A DNA stretch of 64,000 nucleotides from NCBI GenBank assembly GCA_023264635.1, contig JAHFLT010000005.1, positions 4,582 to 68,581 of the forward strand, written 5' to 3'. Position 1 is the first letter of the stretch. Each line of letters starts with the position of its first letter. The stretch comes from Candidatus Woesearchaeota archaeon (lineage in GTDB: Archaea; Nanobdellota; Nanobdellia; Woesearchaeales; JAGVYF01). The notes beneath the pieces were generated by a model. That model did not search any database. It had not been told where the DNA came from and worked only from the letters and a program-made list of their open reading frames with translations. Both the position numbers and the translations under genes were made by a program. Positions 4,838-32,174 of the stretch are shown here, piece after piece.

Positions 4838-5170
4838 ATGATTCTAACAGAAGAGAAATCAGCTTATTATGTTGCGGCTCGTAAAAAAGGTTCAGAAGAC
4901 TCCTTCCAGTTTGTCAAATATGAAAAACACGGCAGGTGTGCCGGTGGACTTTCTACCGAGTGGAGTGTTGGTTTTAGAGTCGGGAATTATGCCTGTTCTG
5001 AAGAGATAGCAAAGAAAGCGCAGGAAGAACTTGAAAAACGAGGGTTTGAAGTACAGATTATAAAACAGTACTGGCCTTCGGGACATATCGATCTTGATGG
5101 GATTATTTTTGCAGAAGGACTGGAAAAAATTGCGAAGAATATTATAAAGAAAAGCAAGCGGGAATTATAA
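4838..5170 (+). CDS. Hypothetical protein
   Basis: Clean 110-aa ORF with no recognisable family. Confidence 0.3.
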   Translation: MILTEEKSAYYVAARKKGSEDSFQFVKYEKHGRCAGGLSTEWSVGFRVGNYACSEEIAKKAQEELEKRGFEVQIIKQYWPSGHIDLDGIIFAEGLEKIAKNIIKKSKREL

Positions 5171-5176
5171 TTTTTC

Positions 5177-6232
5177 TTAGTCTTTCCACGTCCTCATCGC
5201 TTCTCCCAAACGTCGTAATCCTTCACGGAGAATATCCTCTTTTACACTATAGCCAATCCGAAGAAACCCCTCCGCTTCAAAGAAAGCACCAGGAATCACG
5301 CGTGTCTGATACGTATCAATAAGATAGTCAACAAATGCGCGTGTATCACTGACAGGTACTTTAACGAACCCTATAGGAGTTCCATTTGGTTCAACCCATT
5401 GGACATTATAGTGTGTTACCCATTCTTTCATGAGGGAAAAGTTTTTTCGCAGCCTCGCAAGCGTCAGCCCTCTCCACATATCTTCATTACGTAATACCTC
5501 TTGTGTTTTTTTGTCAATAACCGAAGAGACGTCTGCATGGAGAAGCGTATTTGCTTCCTCTATTTTAGAGATAAGCGACTCTTCTCCCACAACCCACCCA
5601 ACTTTGAGCTTGCCAAGTCCATATGGTTTATTCACGTGCGACAGAGAAAGGGCATATTTTGTCATGTGACAGAGGGGAGATGACTTCACAAATGAGGCCT
5701 CATTATAGACCTCATCAGAAAGAATAATGCTCTTGTTTTGCTCAGCATACGCAGCAAGTTCTTCAAGATTCTTTTGCGATAGTGATGTCCCAGAAGGATT
5801 ATGTGGGTTGGTGAGGATGACCATTGCCGGAGCTGGTTTTTGATATGAAGGAAGAGGTAACGCAAAGCTCTGCTCAAAAAGGCGTTGTAACGGTTGAATG
5901 GCACAGCCCATGCTTCTCGCTCCCAGTACAAGTGGCTCGTACACCGGTGTTTCAACAGCGACACTATCTTTTGGAGAAAGAAAAGTCTGCACAATAAGCT
6001 GGACAAGGAGAGAAACGCCTGTGGTGACGAATATATTTTTCTTTTCTACATTATACTTTGCTGCAAGAAGTGATCGTAACTCAGGACTTCCACTCATAAA
6101 CGGAACAGAGAGCTTTGTCTGAGGAACAATAACCTCATACTCTTCAGGACACATCCCACTTGAATACAAATCATACTTTATGAAACGCTTTTCTCTTTCC
6201 AGCCAGAGCAAATATGAAGAAGGAATAATCAT
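5177..6232 (-). CDS. PLP-dependent aminotransferase, class I/II
   Basis: ILTNPHNPSGT motif (NPxNPTG) and LSHVNKPYGLGKLKVGW with the PLP-lysine region. Stop/start overlap with the downstream gdh (ATGA at 6229-6232). Confidence 0.7.
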   Translation of the reverse strand: MIIPSSYLLWLEREKRFIKYDLYSSGMCPEEYEVIVPQTKLSVPFMSGSPELRSLLAAKYNVEKKNIFVTTGVSLLVQLIVQTFLSPKDSVAVETPVYEPLVLGARSMGCAIQPLQRLFEQSFALPLPSYQKPAPAMVILTNPHNPSGTSLSQKNLEELAAYAEQNKSIILSDEVYNEASFVKSSPLCHMTKYALSLSHVNKPYGLGKLKVGWVVGEESLISKIEEANTLLHADVSSVIDKKTQEVLRNEDMWRGLTLARLRKNFSLMKEWVTHYNVQWVEPNGTPIGFVKVPVSDTRAFVDYLIDTYQTRVIPGAFFEAEGFLRIGYSVKEDILREGLRRLGEAMRTWKD

Positions 6233-7491
6233 GGAAAATGCCCGCGCATCTTGACGTAATTCGCTACCTTTCCGATAGCAAGGACATAAGCCCCTGTTCG
6301 GAGATCAGTATTGTACTGCTTAGCCGCATTCTTCACGCGCACAAAAGCACGATCCATGTACTTGCTAAGTTCATCATACACGCGCTGTTCCTCCCACTGT
6401 AGTTCCTGCTTATCTTGTGCCCACTCAAAGTAGCTGACAGTGACGCCACCAGCATTCGCGAGGATGTCAGGCACAACAATAGTGCCATTTGCAGCCAGTA
6501 TTTTTTCCGCATCCACTGTTGTAGGAGCGTTAGCGCCTTCTACCACCATCTTTGCTTTAATACGGGGGGCATTCTCTGGAGTCAGCTGGTTCTCTAAAGC
6601 TGCCGGAACCAATATGTCAACTGGCAACTCGAGAATATCTTTAACACCACTATGTTCTGCATTGGGATACCCTTGCAGCGTTTTTGTTTTCAATGAATAT
6701 GCAATGACATCATCTATGCCCAACCCCCTTTTGTTATGGATTGTCCCGTTGATATCAGATACCGCAACTACTTTGCATCCGCGCAACTCCAATTGTTTTG
6801 CAGAGACACTTCCCACATTACCAAATCCCTGCACAGCTACTTTCATCCCTTTTAGGTCTCCACGATAAAATTCCCGCCATGCACGTTCTGCGATTTGCAC
6901 AACCCCTCTACCTGTTGCCTCTGCTCTTCCCTGACTACCATATAATTCTACGGGTTTCCCTGTCACAACGCTTGATACAGTGTTTCCATTATTCTCTATA
7001 ATGCTATATGTGTCCATTATCCAGGCCATCACTTCAGCATTTGTCCCCATGTCTGGTGCAGGAACATCCCTGTCTGGATGGAAGACATTGCGCATTTCAT
7101 AGGTATATCTGCGTGTCATTCTCTCTAGCTCTCCTTTGGAAAGTGTCCTCGGATCGCATGTAATGCCACCTTTTGCTCCGCTAAAAGGCAAGTCAACAAC
7201 TGCACATTTCCATGTCATGAGAAATGCCAATGCCTTTATTTCATCTAAATCCACAGAAGGCGCATATCGTATCCCACCTTTTGTTGGTGTCATGAACTTG
7301 TGCCGCACTCTATAGCCAGTAAACATCTTTATCTCACCATTATCTGTCATCACTGGGAAATTCACTTCCAGTTCAAAATTAGTCTTTCGTAACCGTGGAA
7401 GGATATTTTTATCGATATCCATCAGTGCAGCTGCCTGGTCAAATTGTTTTTGTGCATTCTTGTACGGATTGATTTTCTCTTCCATCATCAT
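6229..7491 (-). CDS. gdhA: Glutamate dehydrogenase
   Basis: KGGIRYAPSVDLDEIKALAFLMTWKCAVVDLPFSGAKGGI and the GFGNVG NAD(P) Rossmann motif. Likely start is MMMEEKINPY at about 7491. The ORF track extends to 7623, which would overlap the divergent ZIP gene. Confidence 0.85.
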   Translation of the reverse strand: MMMEEKINPYKNAQKQFDQAAALMDIDKNILPRLRKTNFELEVNFPVMTDNGEIKMFTGYRVRHKFMTPTKGGIRYAPSVDLDEIKALAFLMTWKCAVVDLPFSGAKGGITCDPRTLSKGELERMTRRYTYEMRNVFHPDRDVPAPDMGTNAEVMAWIMDTYSIIENNGNTVSSVVTGKPVELYGSQGRAEATGRGVVQIAERAWREFYRGDLKGMKVAVQGFGNVGSVSAKQLELRGCKVVAVSDINGTIHNKRGLGIDDVIAYSLKTKTLQGYPNAEHSGVKDILELPVDILVPAALENQLTPENAPRIKAKMVVEGANAPTTVDAEKILAANGTIVVPDILANAGGVTVSYFEWAQDKQELQWEEQRVYDELSKYMDRAFVRVKNAAKQYNTDLRTGAYVLAIGKVANYVKMRGHFP

Positions 7492-7595
7492 CCCCCCGGC
7501 AATAACCCGTCTAATCCATTTTGCAATTATTTCGTCTTCAAACGTCATAATACAAGCGCGAAATGTAATCGTCGTAATGCTGGTATTTAAATTAG

Positions 7596-8348
7596 TTGCG
7601 CACAAAGCTTTTAAAGAAAACAAAACTATGCATTACCATGTTACTCTATATCCTTTTCAGTATAGCTATTGTTAGTCTTATTTCCCTTGTGGGGGTATTT
7701 TTTTTTTCTGGTTTCCTTGAGAGACATTTATTCCTTCTTGTCGGTTTTGCTACTGGTGCGTTGCTTGGTACAACATTTTTCGATATACTGCCTGAAACAA
7801 ATGAAACAAGCATTGTTTTAGTTGGTATATTAGTTTCTTTCCTCCTGGAAAAATTGTTTTGGCATCATCACCATCATTATGAAGAACACCATAAACACGT
7901 TCATCCTGCTGCTTATCTCAATCTCGTAGGAGATGGCATCCACAACTTTATTGACGGAACAATAATCACATCTGCTTATCTTACAAGTATACCACTTGGA
8001 GTAACAGTAACATTGGCCATCATCCTTCATGAAATTCCACAGGAGATAGGTGATTTCGGCATTCTTTTGGCAAGTGGTTTCACGAAAGAGAAAGCATTGT
8101 TCTATAACTTTCTTTCAGCGCTCACTGCATTTGCAGGTGGGTTACTCGTCTACTTCTTTTCATTTAGTATGAAAACACTTGCGCCTACATTACTCGCATT
8201 TGCTGCCGGTGGATTTTTATATATTACAAATGTAGATATGATGCCGGAGTTACATAAAGAAAAAGACACGAAAAAATCAATACAGCAAGTTATTTTTATT
8301 TTGTTAGGAATTGGAGTTATTTGGATTGGTGCTCAACACGGAAGGTGA
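7596..8348 (+). CDS. zupT: ZIP-family zinc/iron permease (ZupT-like)
   Basis: HNFIDG and LAIILHEIPQEIGDFGIL motifs, a His-rich loop HHHHHYEEHHKH, and multiple TM helices. An alternative start lies at M7638. Confidence 0.75.
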   Translation: MRTKLLKKTKLCITMLLYILFSIAIVSLISLVGVFFFSGFLERHLFLLVGFATGALLGTTFFDILPETNETSIVLVGILVSFLLEKLFWHHHHHYEEHHKHVHPAAYLNLVGDGIHNFIDGTIITSAYLTSIPLGVTVTLAIILHEIPQEIGDFGILLASGFTKEKALFYNFLSALTAFAGGLLVYFFSFSMKTLAPTLLAFAAGGFLYITNVDMMPELHKEKDTKKSIQQVIFILLGIGVIWIGAQHGR

Positions 8349-8422
8349 CTTTCTCACATCCACATCCTCATCTGTTAGTTTAAAGATGAGTGTTTCATTG
8401 GTCATTGATTTATTTCCCTCTT

Positions 8423-8670
8423 AAGTTTTTCCCAGGTTTTTTTCGCTGAGCCGAAGGTGAAGTCGAAAAAAAGCAGGTGTAAGTTGCAGCGAAACTGCCT
8501 ACTCTTTTCCCAGGTTCCAAAGAAATTCTTTTGGAATTTCTTGGACCAAGACGAGCTTTGCTCGTCTTTGGTTTTGGGAGTGAGCCGAAGGCGAACGAAC
8601 AAAAAGCTGAAATGGGCCCACCCGGATTTTCTACTGGGTATTCAGTCTTTGAACCGGGGACCTTCACCTT
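8423..8670. repeat. Expanded copy (A) of a repeated intergenic element: core motifs tttttcccagg, gctgagccgaagg, aaaaagctg and tttgaaccggg, with an internal partial duplication and two strong hairpins
   Basis: The same motifs in the same order as element B at 41526..41612. Hairpins are agaaattc-tttt-gaatttct (8521-8541) and ccaagacgagc-ttt-gctcgtctttgg (8546-8571), each followed by a T-run. A long-range 9-bp pairing aaggtgaag (8453-8461) with cttcacctt (8663-8671) also encloses part of the region. It lies in a 470-bp gap between convergent genes. Confidence 0.5.
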
Positions 8671-8821
8671 TCTTCAGCATATTTGTTTTATCTCTTTGTG
8701 CTATGTAAGGGTGACGTCATAGCCGCTAGACCATGGGCCCGAAACAGAACGGTATTTTTAAGAGATATAAAAGACTTTACCTACCTAATCCAAATCTTGC
8801 ACGCCTTGCGCCTTCGACGTT

Positions 8822-9556
8822 TTATTTTCTTTGTAATATCCCAAGAGACGCTCTAAAGAAGAAACATGCGTCGATACCATATCCACAGCCGTAACGATTA
8901 CCGCGACTAACAGGCATCAAAACATTTTCCGGTGGAAGATAAAGCCATGTATTCTGCCTAATTTCCTCGGGTAATATCGCATACGGACGAGACCAGAGCT
9001 TCTGGACTAGGAAGGGGTTTATTTCGTTCACACCTTTGGGGGTACTCCAATCAAGTAATGAGCCAATGGAATACACTTCCTCTCCCGCGTGTTTCAGTTT
9101 TCCTCCTTGCACTACATATTGATATCCATTCCACACTAGATTCTCCGGGTCGAGATAGCAGTGCAACATATTCTCTTCCTGCATTATCGCCATGCTTAGC
9201 CATTCTCCGTAACCATTGAGCATATTATCAGCAATTGCTTGCTGGTCTGGTTGTAGTGTCCCTTCCAGTCCTCTGCAGATAAGGTCAAATGCTTCTACTG
9301 GTCTGGGATGGCGCTCGTAGCCGCGTGCTCGCAATGCACGCAGACTGGCGTCATAGGTGTACAGTCTTTTCTCTTTTCCATCATAAACCGCTTTCTCTTC
9401 GAAAACAACATCAGATAGTGCTGACTTTATGGTAATCTCCTTTTTCTCATCGGGTTTGCCGATATCGAGATATGATTCAATGCCCATAAAGAGGGAGAGA
9501 TTGAGTGACATTAAAAAACTTACCTGCTGAGTAAGTTGAGTAAAAGCTGAGAACAT
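8822..9556 (-). CDS. Unknown-function paralog family, copy 1 (of 3)
   Basis: Shares GKPDEKKEITIKSALSDVVFE, YERHPRP.EAFDLICRGLEG, YGEWLSMA, LHCYLDPENL, VVQGGK.KHA and KLWSRPYAILPE with 19030..19695 and 19692..20369. Likely true start is MGIESYLDIGKPDEKK. About 170 nt are near-identical to copy 2. Confidence 0.5.
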   Translation of the reverse strand: MFSAFTQLTQQVSFLMSLNLSLFMGIESYLDIGKPDEKKEITIKSALSDVVFEEKAVYDGKEKRLYTYDASLRALRARGYERHPRPVEAFDLICRGLEGTLQPDQQAIADNMLNGYGEWLSMAIMQEENMLHCYLDPENLVWNGYQYVVQGGKLKHAGEEVYSIGSLLDWSTPKGVNEINPFLVQKLWSRPYAILPEEIRQNTWLYLPPENVLMPVSRGNRYGCGYGIDACFFFRASLGILQRK

Positions 9557-9581: not shown

Positions 9582-10973
9582 TTGGGACTTGTGGGGGAAG
9601 TGACAATACAAGACAAACTCCTGGGAGATAATGGTGTCTACGACCTAGTGAACCAAAACTTCTACTTGAATCGTGCACAAATCCAGCTAGGAGACAGATT
9701 CTTCGAGCCAGTAGCGTTTATCGGCATTCTCACTGCTCTTGTCGACGGCAAAGAATTACTGTATGGTCCGTATGGCAAAGGGAAGACAACTTCTTCAGAA
9801 GCGTTGGGAGCACTCCTCTATGGACTCCCCTTGGAATTCATGCAGGTAAGCCAACTTGATGGTCATCCAGAGCAGACAGAAGAGAAAATAAAGGCTATCA
9901 TTGATTTAGGCAAGCTCACTAAAGAAGGGATTGAGGAGGTCATCTGGCGGTTGTTCGTGTATACTCCTGCAAAAGTATGTGATGAAATTAATCGTCTTCC
10001 CGAAGGCAAGCAGAACATCTTGCTCAAAGGAATTGATAGAAATGTATGGACGTACCGAGATAGTACATTGACAGTGCCGCAAGGATGCTTTTACGGAACA
10101 TGCAATTATGCTGACAGGGGAAATACAGATCTCATCCCACCGTTGAAAGACAGATTTGACATCGCTGTAGAAGTGAGACGAGCAGACCCTATTCGCCGCG
10201 AACTCATTAGAAATGGCGTTGTGCGAGATGCATTCGAACAGCTGAAGGAGCCAGCACTGTATACGGAAATTTTCGCTATGCTGATGGACTCCAAACACAC
10301 AGCTGAAAAAAAACTGGAGTTGCTAGAACAGATGAGTCAAAAATTCAAGCAAGAACTCAGCAAGCGCTTCAGTTTGTCCCTTCCCACGAATGATGAACTA
10401 CGCACTGCTAAAAAAGAGTTATCTTCTCTTATCTTGGAGGATGAGGCGACCCTATTCATAGATTACCTTACCAGCGAGATGGAATTCTGTATCTACCATG
10501 ACAAGCCAGAGCATGCCACCTGCCAGAAATGCCATTGGAAAGATTTTCTTTGTTCAAGAATGGGGAAAATAGGAGGCAGACTTGAGCTTTCGGTGGTTAA
10601 GTATGCCCGTGCAACAGCGTGGTTATTAGGGGAAAAAAAAGTAACATTGGAACACGTCAAGATGATATACCCTTATGCGCTATGGCACCGTGCAGAGTTT
10701 CAGGATAATATTTTACAGGAGTATGTCAGCGAGCCGAGAGAAAGCACCTTAAAGCTCCACATCGCACGAAAGATCGTGGAAGAGAAGACACCCCATTTTA
10801 TCGAGACAAAGGACCTGCAGGCACGGAGCTATAATGCTGTTGTCAATAGCAACGCAAACGACCTTGAGAAGTCTCACTTTAAGCATGCTGTGTACGTGGA
10901 TTACGTCAGTGCATGGGACTCCAAAAAAGACAAGGACGCTGTTGAGCAACTGCTGAAAAAAATAAGGAAATGA
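9582..10973 (+). CDS. MoxR-like AAA+ ATPase (AAA_3/AAA_5 type) with a Cys-containing C-terminal extension
   Basis: Walker A LLYGPYGKGKTT. Walker B and sensor region VCDEINRLPEGKQNILLKGIDRN. NP-loop/arginine region TVPQGCFYGTCNYADRGNTDLIPPLKDRFDIAVEV. Non-ATG start (TTG or GTG around 9582-9600). TATA-like ctttatatag about 25-30 nt upstream. Confidence 0.65.
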   Translation: MGLVGEVTIQDKLLGDNGVYDLVNQNFYLNRAQIQLGDRFFEPVAFIGILTALVDGKELLYGPYGKGKTTSSEALGALLYGLPLEFMQVSQLDGHPEQTEEKIKAIIDLGKLTKEGIEEVIWRLFVYTPAKVCDEINRLPEGKQNILLKGIDRNVWTYRDSTLTVPQGCFYGTCNYADRGNTDLIPPLKDRFDIAVEVRRADPIRRELIRNGVVRDAFEQLKEPALYTEIFAMLMDSKHTAEKKLELLEQMSQKFKQELSKRFSLSLPTNDELRTAKKELSSLILEDEATLFIDYLTSEMEFCIYHDKPEHATCQKCHWKDFLCSRMGKIGGRLELSVVKYARATAWLLGEKKVTLEHVKMIYPYALWHRAEFQDNILQEYVSEPRESTLKLHIARKIVEEKTPHFIETKDLQARSYNAVVNSNANDLEKSHFKHAVYVDYVSAWDSKKDKDAVEQLLKKIRK

Positions 10974-11650
10974 CGCTTGACAAACTGATAAAAAAATATG
11001 GTTTGTGGTCAAAAGAAGTTGTAGCATCAAAAGAAAAGTATGTAATAAATGAACAGGCACCTACACCCTATCACCGCTTGCTGGAGCATATCCTTTATTT
11101 TACACCCGAACAACCATTCCCCGGGGTATTCAAGCACTCTTACGATTTATTAGTAAAGGAAGGACTCGAGCCATCACAAGATGATATCGAAGCATTCGCA
11201 AAGAGTTTCCTCGTTTATGAAGGATATGACCGTTTCTGGCGCCGTGCAGGGAAATTTCTCTCAGCCATGATCGCATTATGGGAAAATAACACACACACAA
11301 AAACGTTTATTCGGCTCGATTTCTCTGCTGCAAGTAAACCTGTAGACTATGCATGCATAAAACTAAATAACTGTTCTATTCAGATAGATGGGTCTGTGGG
11401 CTCTTACTGCGGCATGAACAGCAAGGAATGCAATATCCTTATCCAAAGCAATGCTGGTCAATCTCTTGGTTACAAAGCAGAGAAAACTCTTTTCAAAGTA
11501 TCTGGAGAGACGGGAACCGGACTTGGAGCGTATGCACATGCATGCTCATATTTTGTCCGTGGCACAATAGCGCAGATTTCACCGTATATTCTATCCAGTT
11601 GCGAGGTTTACAATAGTGGTGGCAGCGCGCACACAAAGGTGTTCCCATGA
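10970..11650 (+). CDS. Small protein with an N-terminal helical region and a C-terminal GXGXG-type beta-helix repeat; paralog 1 of 3
   Basis: N-terminus MTLDKLIKKYG. C-terminal IQIDGSVGSYCGMNSKECNILIQSNAGQSLGYKAEKTLFKVSGETGTGLGAYAHACSYFVRG fits the GXGXG beta-helix pattern of the glutamate synthase C-terminal domain and FwdC. Start overlaps the upstream stop. Confidence 0.5.
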   Translation: MTLDKLIKKYGLWSKEVVASKEKYVINEQAPTPYHRLLEHILYFTPEQPFPGVFKHSYDLLVKEGLEPSQDDIEAFAKSFLVYEGYDRFWRRAGKFLSAMIALWENNTHTKTFIRLDFSAASKPVDYACIKLNNCSIQIDGSVGSYCGMNSKECNILIQSNAGQSLGYKAEKTLFKVSGETGTGLGAYAHACSYFVRGTIAQISPYILSSCEVYNSGGSAHTKVFP

Positions 11651-12219
11651 CCATAGACAAACTCCTCAAACAAAAAAAGGTCCCAGACAAAAAGGTAAGT
11701 GAACAGAAAAAGACAAATTATCAGGAATCACTTCAGCCATTGAGCCTTCATGACCTCTATAAAGATATGCTCCTTGGGTATGAATATGGCTTACGATGGG
11801 ACCCGAAAAAGCTGGACATCATCACCGTGACAAGGGATGATTTGACAGTAATCATAGACGAACTGTCATGCCACCAATCCTCTATCGGATTCGAGTTCTT
11901 CACAGGCAGCTTTATTTCAGATGTGATGATGCACTTGCTTATGAAGGGAGAACTTGAGAAATACATCACTATTACTCTTCCAAAGGCAGTTCACAGGATG
12001 GGCGCTGGAATCCATACCATAACCCTCGAAATTAAAGGAGACTGTGGCTACAATTGCGCGCAGAACGCGAAAAATGCGATGTTTATCGTCCACGGAGATG
12101 TGACAACCATTGGAAGAAATGAGAACTGTACATTTTACATTTATGGTGACGTCAAAAGTCATAAATATTATAATAGCAATGTGTATCTGTACAGAAACAA
12201 TGGATGGACTCACCTATGA
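11647..12219 (+). CDS. GXGXG-like beta-helix small protein, paralog 2
   Basis: N-terminus MTIDKLLKQKK. C-terminus ITLEIKGDCGYNCAQNAKNAMFIVHGDVTTIGRNENCTFYIYGDV. Overlapping start/stop with its neighbours. Confidence 0.5.
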   Translation: MTIDKLLKQKKVPDKKVSEQKKTNYQESLQPLSLHDLYKDMLLGYEYGLRWDPKKLDIITVTRDDLTVIIDELSCHQSSIGFEFFTGSFISDVMMHLLMKGELEKYITITLPKAVHRMGAGIHTITLEIKGDCGYNCAQNAKNAMFIVHGDVTTIGRNENCTFYIYGDVKSHKYYNSNVYLYRNNGWTHL

Positions 12220-12803
12220 CGCTTGAAAAACTTTTGAAGAAACACGGAATAAAGGTGATTGAAGTAAAGGATAAGGCAAAGCATATTGTTGCTTATCCCT
12301 CCATCGTAGAGATATACACTCTTTTAATAAAAGACGCTGCACAATTCTTCGACGGAAAAAAAAAGGTGCAATATGCTGATATATGTGAATTGCTCACAAG
12401 GAGAGGATGCACAAAAAATGAGTTTGAAAAACTATGCGCTTCACTGGATCAATACAAGAATATGCGTAATTTTCCTCGATGCACAGGTATCGCATTAAGC
12501 ACAATAGTAACAGTACTTCCAGCAAAGATGACTATTGATGTTTCTTCTTTATCTGTTCCGCCAGATTATCTCTGCACACGCCTCGCTGACAAGGAGTATA
12601 CCCTTATTGGGGAGGTAGGTAGATGTTTTGGGTTCCAGACAGAGCGCAGTATTTTCCATCTTGATGGGAGATATGGAGATTCTCTGGGCAAAGAAACTAG
12701 TGACTGCACGTTTTATATCAAAGACCCATATACTCCGCATAATATCCCCCCGTCCAATAGTGTTTACTACTTAAAGAATGGCAAGTGGCGGCGCGGGAGA
12801 TAA
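12204..12803 (+). CDS. GXGXG-like beta-helix small protein, paralog 3
   Basis: N-terminus MDSPMTLEKLLKKHG. C-terminus LIGEVGRCFGFQTERSIFHLDGRYGDSLGKETSDCTFYIKD. Confidence 0.45.
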   Translation: MDSPMTLEKLLKKHGIKVIEVKDKAKHIVAYPSIVEIYTLLIKDAAQFFDGKKKVQYADICELLTRRGCTKNEFEKLCASLDQYKNMRNFPRCTGIALSTIVTVLPAKMTIDVSSLSVPPDYLCTRLADKEYTLIGEVGRCFGFQTERSIFHLDGRYGDSLGKETSDCTFYIKDPYTPHNIPPSNSVYYLKNGKWRRGR

Positions 12804-19029: not shown

Positions 19030-19695
19030 TTATGCTTGGGGCATTACCCCGCGAGAGACCTTGCAGTACCCTGTGCCGACATCATACCATTTATAGTAAC
19101 CACCGCGACTCATAAGCCACAAAACACTCTCTGGTGGAATCCACATCAATGCATTCTGCCTAATCTTTTCGGGTAGTATCGCATACGGGCGAGACCAGAG
19201 TTTCTCGACCAAAGTGGGGTTTATTTCGTTCATGGTTTTGGGGGTAAAGCAATCAGGAAATGAGCTAATTGAATACACTTCCTCTCTCGCGTGTTTTATT
19301 TTTCCTCCTTGTACAACATACCTCCACTCTTTCTTATCCCATAGGAGATTCTCCGGATCGAGATAACAATGCAACAAATTTCCTTTCCGCAACATTGCCA
19401 TGCTTAGCCATTCGCCATAACTATTCATCATATCATCAGCGATTGCTTGCTGTTCTGGAGATAATCTTCCTTCCAGTCCTCTGCAGATAAGGTCAAATGC
19501 TTCTGCTGGACGGGGGTGGCGCTCATAGCCGCGTTCTCTTAGTGCTTGTAAGCTGTCATTGAAAGTGTAGAGTTTTTTGTGTTGTCCTTCGTACACAGTT
19601 CTCGGTTCGAAAACAACATCTGATAGTGCTGACTTTAGGGTAATCTCTTTTTTCTCATCGGGTTTATTGAGGCCGAGATAGAAATCAATGCTCAT
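19030..19695 (-). CDS. Unknown-function paralog family, copy 3
   Basis: Shares the same conserved blocks as 8822..9556. About 80% nucleotide identity in the core, with a divergent C-terminal tail. Confidence 0.5.
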   Translation of the reverse strand: MSIDFYLGLNKPDEKKEITLKSALSDVVFEPRTVYEGQHKKLYTFNDSLQALRERGYERHPRPAEAFDLICRGLEGRLSPEQQAIADDMMNSYGEWLSMAMLRKGNLLHCYLDPENLLWDKKEWRYVVQGGKIKHAREEVYSISSFPDCFTPKTMNEINPTLVEKLWSRPYAILPEKIRQNALMWIPPESVLWLMSRGGYYKWYDVGTGYCKVSRGVMPQA

Positions 19696-20369
19696 CGTTG
19701 TCGTACCCCACGAGATGCACTGGTGATGTAGCTGGTGTCAACATCATACTTGGTGATGTAGTTATTGCTACTGACAGGACGCAAAGCATTTTCTGGTGGA
19801 AGCAAAATCCACGCATTCTGTCTTATCTCTTCAGGTAATAGTGCATAGTGACGAGACCAGAGCTTCTCCACTAAGGCTGGATTCGCATCGTTCATATATT
19901 TAATGTGAATCAACCCATGCAATGAGCCAATAGAGTACACTTCCTCTTCCGCGTGTTTCAGTTTTCCTCCTTGAACAATGTATTGATTTCCATTCCACAC
20001 CAGATTCTCCGGGTCAAGATAGCAATGCAACAGATTTCCTTTCCGCAGAATTGCCATGCTCAGCCATTCGCCATAACTATTCACCATATCGCCAGCAACT
20101 GCTTGCTGCTCTGGTTGCAGTCTCTCCTCCAGTCCTCTGCAGATAAAATCAAACGCTTCTACTGGTCTGGGATGGCGCTCGTAGCCGCGTGCTCGCAATG
20201 CACGCAGACTGGCGTCATAGGTGTACAGTCTTTTCTCTTTTCCATCATAAACCGCTTTCTCTTCGAAAACAACATCTGATAGTGCTGACTTTATGGTAAT
20301 CTCCTTTTTCTCATCTGGTTTGCCTAGTCCCTCGTACAGTTTTATCATGTTAATAGAGAATCCCAACAA
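19692..20369 (-). CDS. Unknown-function paralog family, copy 2 (tandem with copy 3)
   Basis: Same blocks. The 170 nt at 20151-20320 match 9291-9460 with 2 mismatches. Confidence 0.5.
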   Translation of the reverse strand: MLGFSINMIKLYEGLGKPDEKKEITIKSALSDVVFEEKAVYDGKEKRLYTYDASLRALRARGYERHPRPVEAFDFICRGLEERLQPEQQAVAGDMVNSYGEWLSMAILRKGNLLHCYLDPENLVWNGNQYIVQGGKLKHAEEEVYSIGSLHGLIHIKYMNDANPALVEKLWSRHYALLPEEIRQNAWILLPPENALRPVSSNNYITKYDVDTSYITSASRGVRQR

Positions 20370-20826
20370 CTACCCCGTTGACTTGAGAGAACCTCACTGG
20401 CTCAAGATCAGATGAGGAATTATTGTCTCCCTTTACAATCGCATACCATCCTTCTTTGTCCTCCCCAATACGAATGACGCGGTGGATGATGAGCGTTCTG
20501 TCCAGAGAATATGAAATTATATCGCCGACATGAATCTCTTCAGAGCTCTGTGGCTTTACTTCAAATGCATTAGCTTCCTTATCCAGCGTAGGATCCATTG
20601 AATTGGTGTCAGTGAACTTTGACCAGAACAGATGTGGTGCACTGATGACAGCATAATTATCATAGACTTGTATCTGATCTTCCTTTAGATGATCTGCTGG
20701 TGATATGCGCTCTGGCGCAGCAACGAATGCATATGGACTCTCAAACTGTATAGAACTCAAAACAGTATGAGAGAACCATCCAAGCAATGCTGCACAGAGC
20801 ATGATGAAAAACAGCCACTTATCCAT
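20350..20826 (-). CDS. Signal peptidase I (S26 family, archaeal/SipW-like)
   Basis: N-terminal TM helix. Catalytic Ser box NSMDPTL. IIHRVIRI His box. Its 3' end overlaps paralog copy 2. Confidence 0.7.
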   Translation of the reverse strand: MDKWLFFIMLCAALLGWFSHTVLSSIQFESPYAFVAAPERISPADHLKEDQIQVYDNYAVISAPHLFWSKFTDTNSMDPTLDKEANAFEVKPQSSEEIHVGDIISYSLDRTLIIHRVIRIGEDKEGWYAIVKGDNNSSSDLEPVRFSQVNGVVVGILY

Positions 20827-31897: not shown

Positions 31898-31949
31898 TTT
31901 TAAAGGTATGGCGAAATCTTTATAAACACGGCACTATGTTCAGGTACTT

Positions 31950-32060
31950 GGACGGTCATAGGGGCTTGGTTCACCCGATCCCATTCCGAACTCGGACGTT
32001 AAGCAAGCCTCCGTACCGGTAAGTACTTTACTCAGTAGGGGAAAGCTGGTAAGCTGTCCA
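31950..32060 (+). rRNA. rrf: 5S ribosomal RNA
   Basis: CACCCGATCCCATTCCGAACTCGGACGTTAAGC matches the universal 5S loop B/helix III/loop C core. Terminal helix I is ggacgg...ctgtcc. TATA-like tttataaa about 25 nt upstream. No 16S/23S adjacent. Confidence 0.75.
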
Positions 32061-32174
32061 CTCACATTCTCCCTTTACTACATTCTCCCGTAAGCATATT
32101 CTTCACTCAGCTATTCTTCCACAACTTACACAAAGATTAAATAATGCTGTGCACTGCCCGAGTAACACTTACCT

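Follow-up and report, generated by a model that had tools for sequence, protein, structure and literature searches.

The three paralogous genes of the window (by which we mean the whole 64-kb stretch of DNA analyzed) are probably dispersed members, without a reverse transcriptase (RT) of their own, of a variable-protein family of diversity-generating retroelements (DGRs), whose hypervariable blocks would be either frozen or served from a remote site while gene conversion shuffles segments among the copies. All three reading frames of the original prediction (8822..9556, 19692..20369 and 19030..19695) are present, intact and encoded on the minus strand; alignment with 35 close paralogs led us to revise two of the starts, placing the probable first residue of copy 1 at M24 and the probable start of copy 2 at MIKLYEG.

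8822..9487, minus strand: copy 1 coding sequence, 221 aa when begun at M24 (at its longest, the ORF reaches 9556 and has 244 aa)
19692..20348, minus strand: copy 2 coding sequence (P0002), 218 aa, start MIKLYEG (ORF to 20369)
19030..19695, minus strand: copy 3 coding sequence (P0003), 221 aa, in tandem with copy 2

Copies 2 and 3 are tightly packed behind an archaeal signal-peptidase-I-like gene (20350-20826), the stop of which lies one base before the copy 2 start (TAA-C-ATG); the copy 2 stop in turn shares bases with the copy 3 start (ATGA). By eye, a T-rich, TATA-like element is visible ~30 nt 5' of M24 in copy 1, a position that would fit M24 as the start. No fourth copy was found in the 64-kb window using tblastn, giving exactly three. 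The encoded proteins are 65-73% identical to one another and contain the conserved blocks listed for them earlier; overall nucleotide identity is 80.5% between copies 1 and 2, 76% between copies 1 and 3, and 73% between copies 2 and 3, such that the “about 80%” once given for copy 3 was slightly generous. A profile of the family recovers copy 1 at E=4e-88 and copy 2 at E=5e-91, copy 1 being the most divergent at its 3' end (ASLGIL versus the family ASRGV). Outside the hypervariable block, the copies mismatch at 0.17/0.11/0.29 of codon positions 1/2/3; this scaffold is under purifying selection, and the genes are therefore functional. Further paralogs (P0005, P0021 and P0028) lie on a 71,538-nt contig, presumably the source contig beyond the window, and the sample from which the window derives is ENA ERZ27297570, whose other loci were inspected as gene tables.

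Protein searches retrieved relatives in number, as befits a real paralog family: 122 members using a word-indexed search, and at least 521 representatives at the 50% identity level using an exhaustive one. All of these matches are unannotated or hypothetical, those with named sources coming from Nanoarchaeota/Nanoarchaeia MAGs; the family is thus an unnamed one, found mainly in DPANN-type archaea. The expectation that no recognized domain would be present held: none of the three copies has a Pfam match at E<=10 (including to the FGE-sulfatase and DUF1566 models, the usual DGR target domains), NCBIfam and PHROGs likewise gave no match for the three proteins, and profiles of 3 and 61 sequences run against PDB sequences returned noise only, failing to find AvpA (5IOO). 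An alignment of 61 sequences defines a conserved core comprising SL..LR..GYERHPRP.E.F, LEG.L, EWLS.A, CYLDPENL.W, LP.E, LP..G..WPVGRG and a C-terminal ASRGVR.

An AlphaFold (AF2) model of copy 3, built on the 61-sequence alignment (pLDDT 91.5, pTM 0.87, with only residues 1-20 disordered), predicts a C-type lectin fold with its variable region near the C-terminus. Its nearest structural matches are AvpA and TaqVP, both of them DGR variable proteins with a C-type lectin fold; TvpA, Mtd, domains of the FGE/EgtB/OvoA type and animal C-type lectins by the dozen come next. A Foldseek search against the PDB yielded lectin matches only, all of them non-significant. This fold leaves little room for the nuclease that was once suspected, in which the LDPENL...GGKLKH region would supply a D..E.K-type active site: acidic and basic residues had only been judged by eye to be suitably spaced there, the confident model is that of a lectin, and K134 and H135 of the GGK.KH segment are not conserved in the wider family, making nuclease activity scarcely credible.

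The ~220-aa protein is laid out as a short disordered N-terminal peptide (M.I[DE].YLG.GKPDEKKEIT), the lectin-fold domain and, within its C-terminal part, a hypervariable block of ~17 residues. By analogy with Mtd, TvpA and AvpA, it would serve to bind a ligand, with the variable block determining which one. No signal peptide or export signal was seen in the window proteins. The N-terminal GKPDEKKEIT, considered alongside the leaders shared within tandem arrays at two other loci (L002 and L005), suggests recognition by a common machinery; the neighbors in those arrays mostly lack a match to the family profile. The underlying pattern, [GSN]KP[DE]EKKE, is of low complexity, and dominated searches for related loci in genome, metagenome and viral collections (at most one locus in each).

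The C-terminus is indeed hypervariable, but what had been described as a ~40-aa tail is really a block of ~17 codons held between conserved anchors, W-P-V-x-R upstream and A-S-R-G-V downstream. The latter anchor forms the last beta strand (beta5), after which only the final 3-5 residues vary.

8837..8917, minus strand: copy 1 anchor, variable block and beta5, MPVS-RGNRYGCGYGIDACFFFR-ASLGI; variable core 8852-8905
19704..19781, minus strand: copy 2 anchor, variable block and beta5, RPVS-SNNYITKYDVDTSYITS-ASRGV; variable core 19719-19769
19045..19119, minus strand: copy 3 anchor, variable block and beta5, WLMS-RGGYYKWYDVGTGYCK-VSRGV; variable core 19060-19107

Among the window copies, the block mismatches at 0.49/0.47/0.43 of codon positions 1/2/3, the 43% difference at third positions being accompanied by indels of 1-2 codons. 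Residues 198-212 form the entropy peak across 36 close paralogs, at 2.5-3.3 bits, although Y200, Y204 and I206 are kept within the block as a scaffold.

The nature of this block is best understood from distant relatives. P0059, P0041 and P0052 (39-45% identity, within the 35-45% of the cassette-borne members at large) each lie in the same conserved cassette, which runs in order through a small ORF (~70 aa), an AAA_5/bpMoxR ATPase (~423 aa), a variable protein (VP, ~279 aa), a 571-aa protein, a second VP (~277-280 aa), a 300-700-nt gap (containing the template repeat, TR, as seen at locus L012) and an RVT_1 RT (360-384 aa). Both VPs of each cassette match the window-family profile (E ~1e-86 to 1e-88), as does the translated TR.

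8125-8202 of locus L012, in the gap: template repeat TGGCCTGTTGGCCGCGACAACTTCAACAACAGGTACAACATCAACAACTACAACAACAATAGGGCCTCTCGTGGAATA, translating to WPVGRDNFNNRYNINNYNNNRASRGI

Comparison of this TR with the variable region (VR) of the upstream L012 member (5128-5205) reveals 18 mismatches over 78 nt, 18/18 of which fall at TR adenines; against the VR of the downstream member (7697-7743), the mismatches are at adenines in 9/9 cases, and similar TR/VR pairs, again mismatched at adenines, are present at L010 and L011. The cassette RT carries the motifs LGNWTSQ and YVDD, [LIV]GxxxSQ being the signature of DGR-clade RTs; in NCBIfam its nearest models are group II intron RTs, far below cutoff, as expected for the RT of a DGR. 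Two further family members apparently share contigs (57,164 nt and 5,577 nt) with RTs of the cassette-RT clade. Given the cassettes, the profile matches and the adenine-specific TR/VR mismatches, we conclude that the family is a bona fide DGR target family, in which the diversified segment is exactly the block between WPVGR and ASRGV.

The cassette loci (L010, L012/L013/L014 and L007-L009) share with the window copies the same family, anchors and block, and the length of the cassette TR equals that of the copy 2 block: the 78-nt, A-rich anchor-to-anchor segment of copy 2 is collinear without gaps with the 78-nt L012 template repeat, the translation of the latter (WPVGRDNFNNRYNINNYNNNRASRGI) aligning along the copy 2 sequence RPVSSNNYITKYDVDTSYITSASRGV. 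At its 3' end copy 2 reads TCTCGTGGGGTACG, matching the 3' end of the L012 VR (the presumed IMH region) at 14/14 positions, with copy 3 matching at 12/14 and copy 1 at 9/14. The cassette VPs differ in having longer N-terminal leaders (FAGF..DD plus a charged linker), and the cassette loci differ from the window in carrying RT, TR, AAA_5/bpMoxR ATPase, 571-aa protein and small ORF, the window having none of these. On the basis of this homology, we regard the hypervariable tail as the counterpart of a DGR variable region, not as unconstrained sequence.

The composition of the block bears a corresponding footprint in the close paralogs of the window copies. Lys, Glu, Gln, Met and Trp together account for 2.4% of residues (10/411) in 12 variable-block columns versus 26% (217/824) in other variable columns (Fisher p=1.5e-30, a value that overstates significance in that the paralogs are not independent samples). 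These five are residues that NNY codons cannot encode, and their near-absence is the expected footprint of mutagenesis from an AAY template. The exceptional columns 203 (W/G/K/R/E/Q) and 212 (R/G/L/W/K) align with the AGG codons of real TRs. AAC is the best-fitting template codon in 10/14 block columns versus 4/23 elsewhere (p=0.0017); a likelihood test assuming a single template codon per column did not separate the block from other variable columns (p=0.54), and selection for a Tyr/Ser/Gly/Asn-rich binding loop could by itself mimic part of the composition.

We could locate no retroelement parts near the window copies. Neither a motif scan nor phmmer with the cassette RT identified an RT in the 64-kb window; blastn-short, a TR-end pattern and a scan for AAY density revealed no template-like fourth copy therein, and by phmmer no window ORF matches the cassette ATPase, 571-aa protein or small ORF. 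DGR involvement in the window lineage is hence argued from homology and the compositional footprint. An AAA_5 ATPase gene beside copy 1 (9582-10973) was considered as the cassette ATPase; it gave no phmmer match to the latter at E<=0.01 and is not detectably related to it, so a relic cassette around copy 1 was no longer entertained. No clear GC-rich hairpin could be seen by eye downstream of the window copies.

The wider sample offers a similar picture, with no RT seen in the six loci inspected (the window itself plus five known from gene tables). At the five other loci, the neighbors are of the housekeeping kind: RPA/RadA/IleRS; ribosomal protein S2/ABCE1/Pelota; IMPDH/GuaA; MetAP/signal peptidase; and, on a short contig, a paralog trio. 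Among the best 120 of >8000 matches of an RT search, none lay on the window's contigs. On the ENA contig bearing the P0005/P0028/P0021 trio, the genes are followed by a gap of ~580 nt and then a partial gene, an arrangement that resembles a VP-TR-RT layout.

We observe that, in addition to their variable blocks, the copies carry signs of exchange. Copies 1 and 2 were reported to share a near-identical stretch, and both the perfect 122-nt run (9291-9412 = 20155-20276) and the longer match of 170 nt with 2 mismatches (9291-9460 versus 20155-20324) are real; only the copy 2 coordinates had been placed 4 nt off, the true offset between copies being 10864 as opposed to the 10860 of the earlier pairing.

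9291..9460, minus strand: gene-conversion tract in copy 1, codons ~10-65 (GKPDEKKEIT to YERHPRPVEA)
20155..20324, minus strand: counterpart of this tract in copy 2, with the coordinates corrected

Outside this tract the two copies are ~78% identical. When the alignment columns were shuffled 20,000 times, the longest identical runs came to 24 nt on average and to 51 nt at the 99.9th percentile, against the 122 observed (p<5e-5). Compared over the tract, copies 1 and 3 have 13 codons with synonymous changes only and 15 with non-synonymous ones; because these synonymous differences exist, neither purifying selection nor a constraint at the DNA level accounts for the match between copies 1 and 2. 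Three-taxon site patterns favor the grouping (1,2|3) by 31:0:1 over alignment nt 46-180, (2,3|1) by 8 versus 1 (0:1:8) over nt 271-315, and (1,3|2) by 24 versus 11 and 8 over nt 406-540. These switches of topology along the gene reveal a recombination mosaic and so support recent gene conversion, as originally proposed; in view of the shuffle test, the synonymous sites and the mosaic patterns, the long tract is most readily put down to a recent event of gene conversion or recombination involving copies 1 and 2. Mosaicism extends across the family: among the 36 close paralogs many pairs share 40-75 identical residues at an overall identity of 66-80% (simulated identical-residue runs between paralogs attain ~30 at most), and P0004, for instance, is the same as P0006 across residues 11-134 but the same as copy 2 across residues 170-220.

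An artefactual origin of the tract, by chimeric joining or collapse of paralogs during metagenome assembly, has some points in its favor, in that a tract of 122-170 nt is about the size of one short read, the ENA contigs of the sample break within family copies (repeats that assemblers find hard) and certain mosaics, such as P0004, are known from the NCBI assembly only. We nonetheless consider it very unlikely. A 47,538-nt contig of a separate ENA assembly, which stops 85 codons into copy 3, contains the copy 2 protein exactly and the same upstream genes; protein and neighborhood are thereby the same on contigs of 47,538 and 71,538 nt, and recovery of an exact copy 2 from an independent assembly speaks against a chimera specific to one assembler. 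P0001 and P0002 are each on record from both NCBI and ENA sources, the two copies are in frame with diverged flanks on either side of the tract, and comparable mosaics recur in many independent paralog pairs.

It might be asked whether a DGR ever acted in this lineage at all, or whether the block is an ordinary binding loop, rich in Tyr/Ser/Gly/Asn/Asp as are antibody CDRs and shaped by diversifying selection and gene conversion. The raised level of amino-acid-changing substitutions in the block, the pervasive mosaic recombination and the undiscriminating codon-model likelihood test (p=0.54) are all compatible with this alternative, and some AvpA-like proteins belong to no DGR (PMC5006420). 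It is harder to reconcile with the position-by-position collinearity of the block with the VRs and TRs demonstrated in homologues (down to where the conserved Tyr/Ile scaffold residues fall), with the two NGG/NNG-type columns that sit at template AGG codons, or with the near-exclusion of Lys/Glu/Gln/Met/Trp from 12 columns when they make up 31-53% of two adjacent exceptional ones, a pattern difficult to produce by selection alone; we thus hold a history free of DGRs to be improbable. A stronger rival, although still an unlikely one, is that the copies are live targets, with a DGR elsewhere in the genome (possibly on the ~7.5 kb of contig beyond the window) rewriting some of the blocks in trans. 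DGRs with several targets, and with distant ones, are on record (PMC5758913), as are fragmentary DGRs in Nanoarchaeota (PMC4372165); copy 2, which keeps TCTCGTGGGGTACG and an A-rich block of TR length, would be the best candidate for such service, and the gap and partial gene that follow the paralog trio are a further hint in this direction. Targets of one shared template should be identical at all non-adenine positions, however, and the window VRs depart from this rule through their third-position differences and their indels, which also argues that the blocks were not recently written from a single template. The 3' anchor of copy 1 (ASLGIL) is degenerate and appears to have decayed, and neither the 64 kb (for TR and RT) nor the surroundings of the five other loci of the sample (for RT) provide the requisite machinery.

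The reading that we prefer, of RT-less dispersed paralogs, can be set out as a sequence of events. In the related genomes, the RT copies an AAC/AGG-rich template repeat while randomizing its adenines, and the resulting cDNA overwrites exactly the block, to give what would be a changing ligand-binding surface upon a constant scaffold. Block diversity in the window lineage probably arose by such adenine mutagenesis from a DGR in an ancestor, or from one located elsewhere; the gene would then have multiplied into a dispersed family, now with at least 6 copies on the contig and ~30 close paralogs in the sample. The variable blocks are probably at present “frozen” alleles that drift through ordinary mutation, and the paralogs swap segments by gene conversion (scaffold segments for the most part, sometimes whole C-terminal halves), with the 170-nt tract of copies 1 and 2 as the freshest trace.

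Lectin-fold DGR variable proteins are already known from DPANN archaea; this family and its cassette are unnamed in the libraries searched, and a large RT-less expansion of paralogs with pervasive mosaicism would provide a modestly new twist. A fold, a diversification mechanism and a genomic system are thereby assigned to a family of at least 521 clusters that databases leave unnamed, and a DGR cassette conserved in DPANN archaea is defined, which comprises the small ORF, AAA_5 ATPase, 571-aa protein, two VPs, TR and RT. The genome of the window further illustrates what may become of DGR targets at a distance from the retroelement: although the genome is very small, they have multiplied and dispersed, keep intact frames under purifying selection and exchange segments. 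DPANN archaea depend on contact with host cells, and variable lectin-fold binders in such numbers could plausibly help to determine which hosts or partners are recognized. It is possible, if doubtful, that this DPANN lineage has made of a DGR VP gene a germline repertoire, consisting of ~30 intact dispersed paralogs with frozen retroelement-written blocks that are reshuffled by conversion; in a variant of the same idea, one remote DGR may serve dozens of dispersed targets, a number well above the 7-8 reported so far. Were the germline repertoire real, a multigene family would here replace or supplement the retroelement, in a prokaryotic parallel to somatic versus germline-encoded receptor diversity.

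C-type-lectin folds are the general solution for DGR targets (PMC8144416), and among the closest counterparts of the window family is AvpA (PDB 5IOO), the variable protein of a Nanoarchaeota DGR, in which the 3' end of the VR encodes RFxGV (PMC5006420). AvpA and the window family are of about the same size, and both consist of a single C-type-lectin-fold domain with inserts, occur in DPANN hosts and place a variable block immediately before a non-variable last beta strand (RFxGV in AvpA, ASRGV here). The two nonetheless show no detectable sequence similarity in a profile search of PDB sequences; the AvpA-family motifs GxxVVVYAH and HPxxxPFxG are absent from the window family, in which only SRGV provides an analogue of RFxGV. 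AvpA furthermore has a 46-residue tail following the VR (3-5 residues in the window family) and, unlike the copies in the window, adjoins its RT and TR. Mtd (Bordetella phage BPP-1), TvpA (Treponema) and TaqVP (Thermus) are FGE-subclass C-type-lectin DGR VPs that, like the window family, combine a rigid lectin scaffold with AAY-encoded variable residues at the C-terminus; their inserts are different, the window family lacks an FGE-sulfatase Pfam match, and these proteins are surface or tail-fiber components of known or predicted export, in contrast to the window proteins with no export signal seen.

The family is also reminiscent of multigene families that diversify by segmental gene conversion, such as Borrelia vls, Neisseria pilS and Anaplasma msp2, which likewise feature many paralogs, a conserved scaffold, a variable segment and mosaic exchange. 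There is no sign in the window family of the programmed switching associated with those systems, nor does it have an expression site accompanied by silent cassettes, every copy being an intact ORF that has its own start. The tracts exchanged between window-family paralogs, in further contrast to vls, pilS and msp2, fall mostly in the scaffold rather than in the variable block.

Copies 2 and 3 of the lectin-fold family look like parts of a single transcription unit that also holds an archaeal signal-peptidase-I-like gene (20350-20826, minus strand, 158 aa; TIGR02228, 49.6 bits, below the 51.85 cutoff), since one base alone separates the end of that gene from the start codon of copy 2. Despite the presence of a signal-peptidase-like gene in the same apparent unit, copies 2 and 3 carry no signal peptide.

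A second family of paralogs, which also lacks annotation (10970-12803), runs divergently from copy 1; its genes follow an ATPase gene and are translationally coupled:

9582-10973, plus strand: MoxR-like AAA_5/AAA_lid_2 ATPase
10970-11650, plus strand: small paralog
11647-12219, plus strand: small paralog
12204-12803, plus strand: small paralog

All three small paralogs start with MT[LI][DE]KL[IL]KK, and the one at 10970-11650 gives a weak FwdC/GXGXG beta-helix match (TIGR03122, E=6e-8, below cutoff). The ATPase has no detectable relationship to that of the cassette in which diversity-generating retroelements (DGRs) occur in relatives.

On the other side of copy 1, 80 nt downstream, lies a tRNA-Val(UAC) gene (8613-8740, minus strand) interrupted by two introns, one of ~33 nt after the anticodon and one of ~20 nt in the T-loop. 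Both ARAGORN and Rfam missed it in the unspliced genomic sequence; upon splicing in silico, ARAGORN called a tRNA-Val(TAC). A multi-intron tRNA of this kind fits a DPANN-type archaeon, and as no other tRNA was detected across the 64-kb window, further intron-containing tRNAs may be hidden there. The window also contains a solitary 5S rRNA gene (31948-32062, plus strand; RF00001, 70 bits), with neither a 16S nor a 23S rRNA gene. Between the tRNA gene and a ZIP transporter gene, there is a non-coding stretch of ~260 nt (8349-8612, minus strand) in which CCTTCGGCTCA occurs twice, alongside an element resembling a stem-loop, GACGAGCAAAGCTCGTC. This stretch could encode a small RNA or serve as a terminator region; Rfam returned sub-threshold matches only (DUF805b, 16 bits).

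Among the loci of related genomes, L002 (8661-15419) and L005 (7682-19680) hold long arrays of translationally coupled genes, every one of which opens with the ~30-aa leader of its own array (MSRIIGDRKEKSALDEMEEVAR... in L002, ...FAGFSKDDALRQLE... in L005); a charged linker comes next, and then a C-terminal domain that differs between genes. Several end in xRGVR, resembling the last strand of the lectin domain (beta5), and GG[AS]Q recurs at the C-termini, apparently as an in-frame Shine-Dalgarno sequence (GGAGG) serving the gene that follows. Both arrays include the cassette-type AAA_5 ATPase; in L005 it is accompanied by the small ORF and by the 571-aa protein, and no reverse transcriptase (RT) lies within the locus.

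A third locus, L007, holds what looks like a decaying DGR (6400-7823). Its RT gene is divided by a frameshift into two overlapping ORFs, a change that sequencing error could also produce; its template, which is N-rich (translation ...WVVALGVNNNDNFNINTNDNINSNRPALGIA), differs from the three local variable regions at non-adenine positions, anchors included. In L012, two perfect hairpins (CAGGAATT-AAA-AATTCCTG and TCAGAAATGC-AAG-GCATTTCTGA; 7780-7870) lie downstream of the DGR-linked variable region and are candidates for a homing-promoting cruciform; nothing comparable was found downstream of the window copies.

An exhaustive search for family members recovered proteins in which the domain is duplicated or fused. 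In P0122 (1026 aa), a Ser/Thr protein kinase domain (PF00069, E=4e-32) lies at the N-terminus, ahead of two family domains; P0121 (722 aa) likewise carries two family domains, and several proteins of 650-700 aa place the domain C-terminally, behind unannotated N-terminal regions. These fusions hint that the variable lectin domain may be used in signalling or as a sensor.
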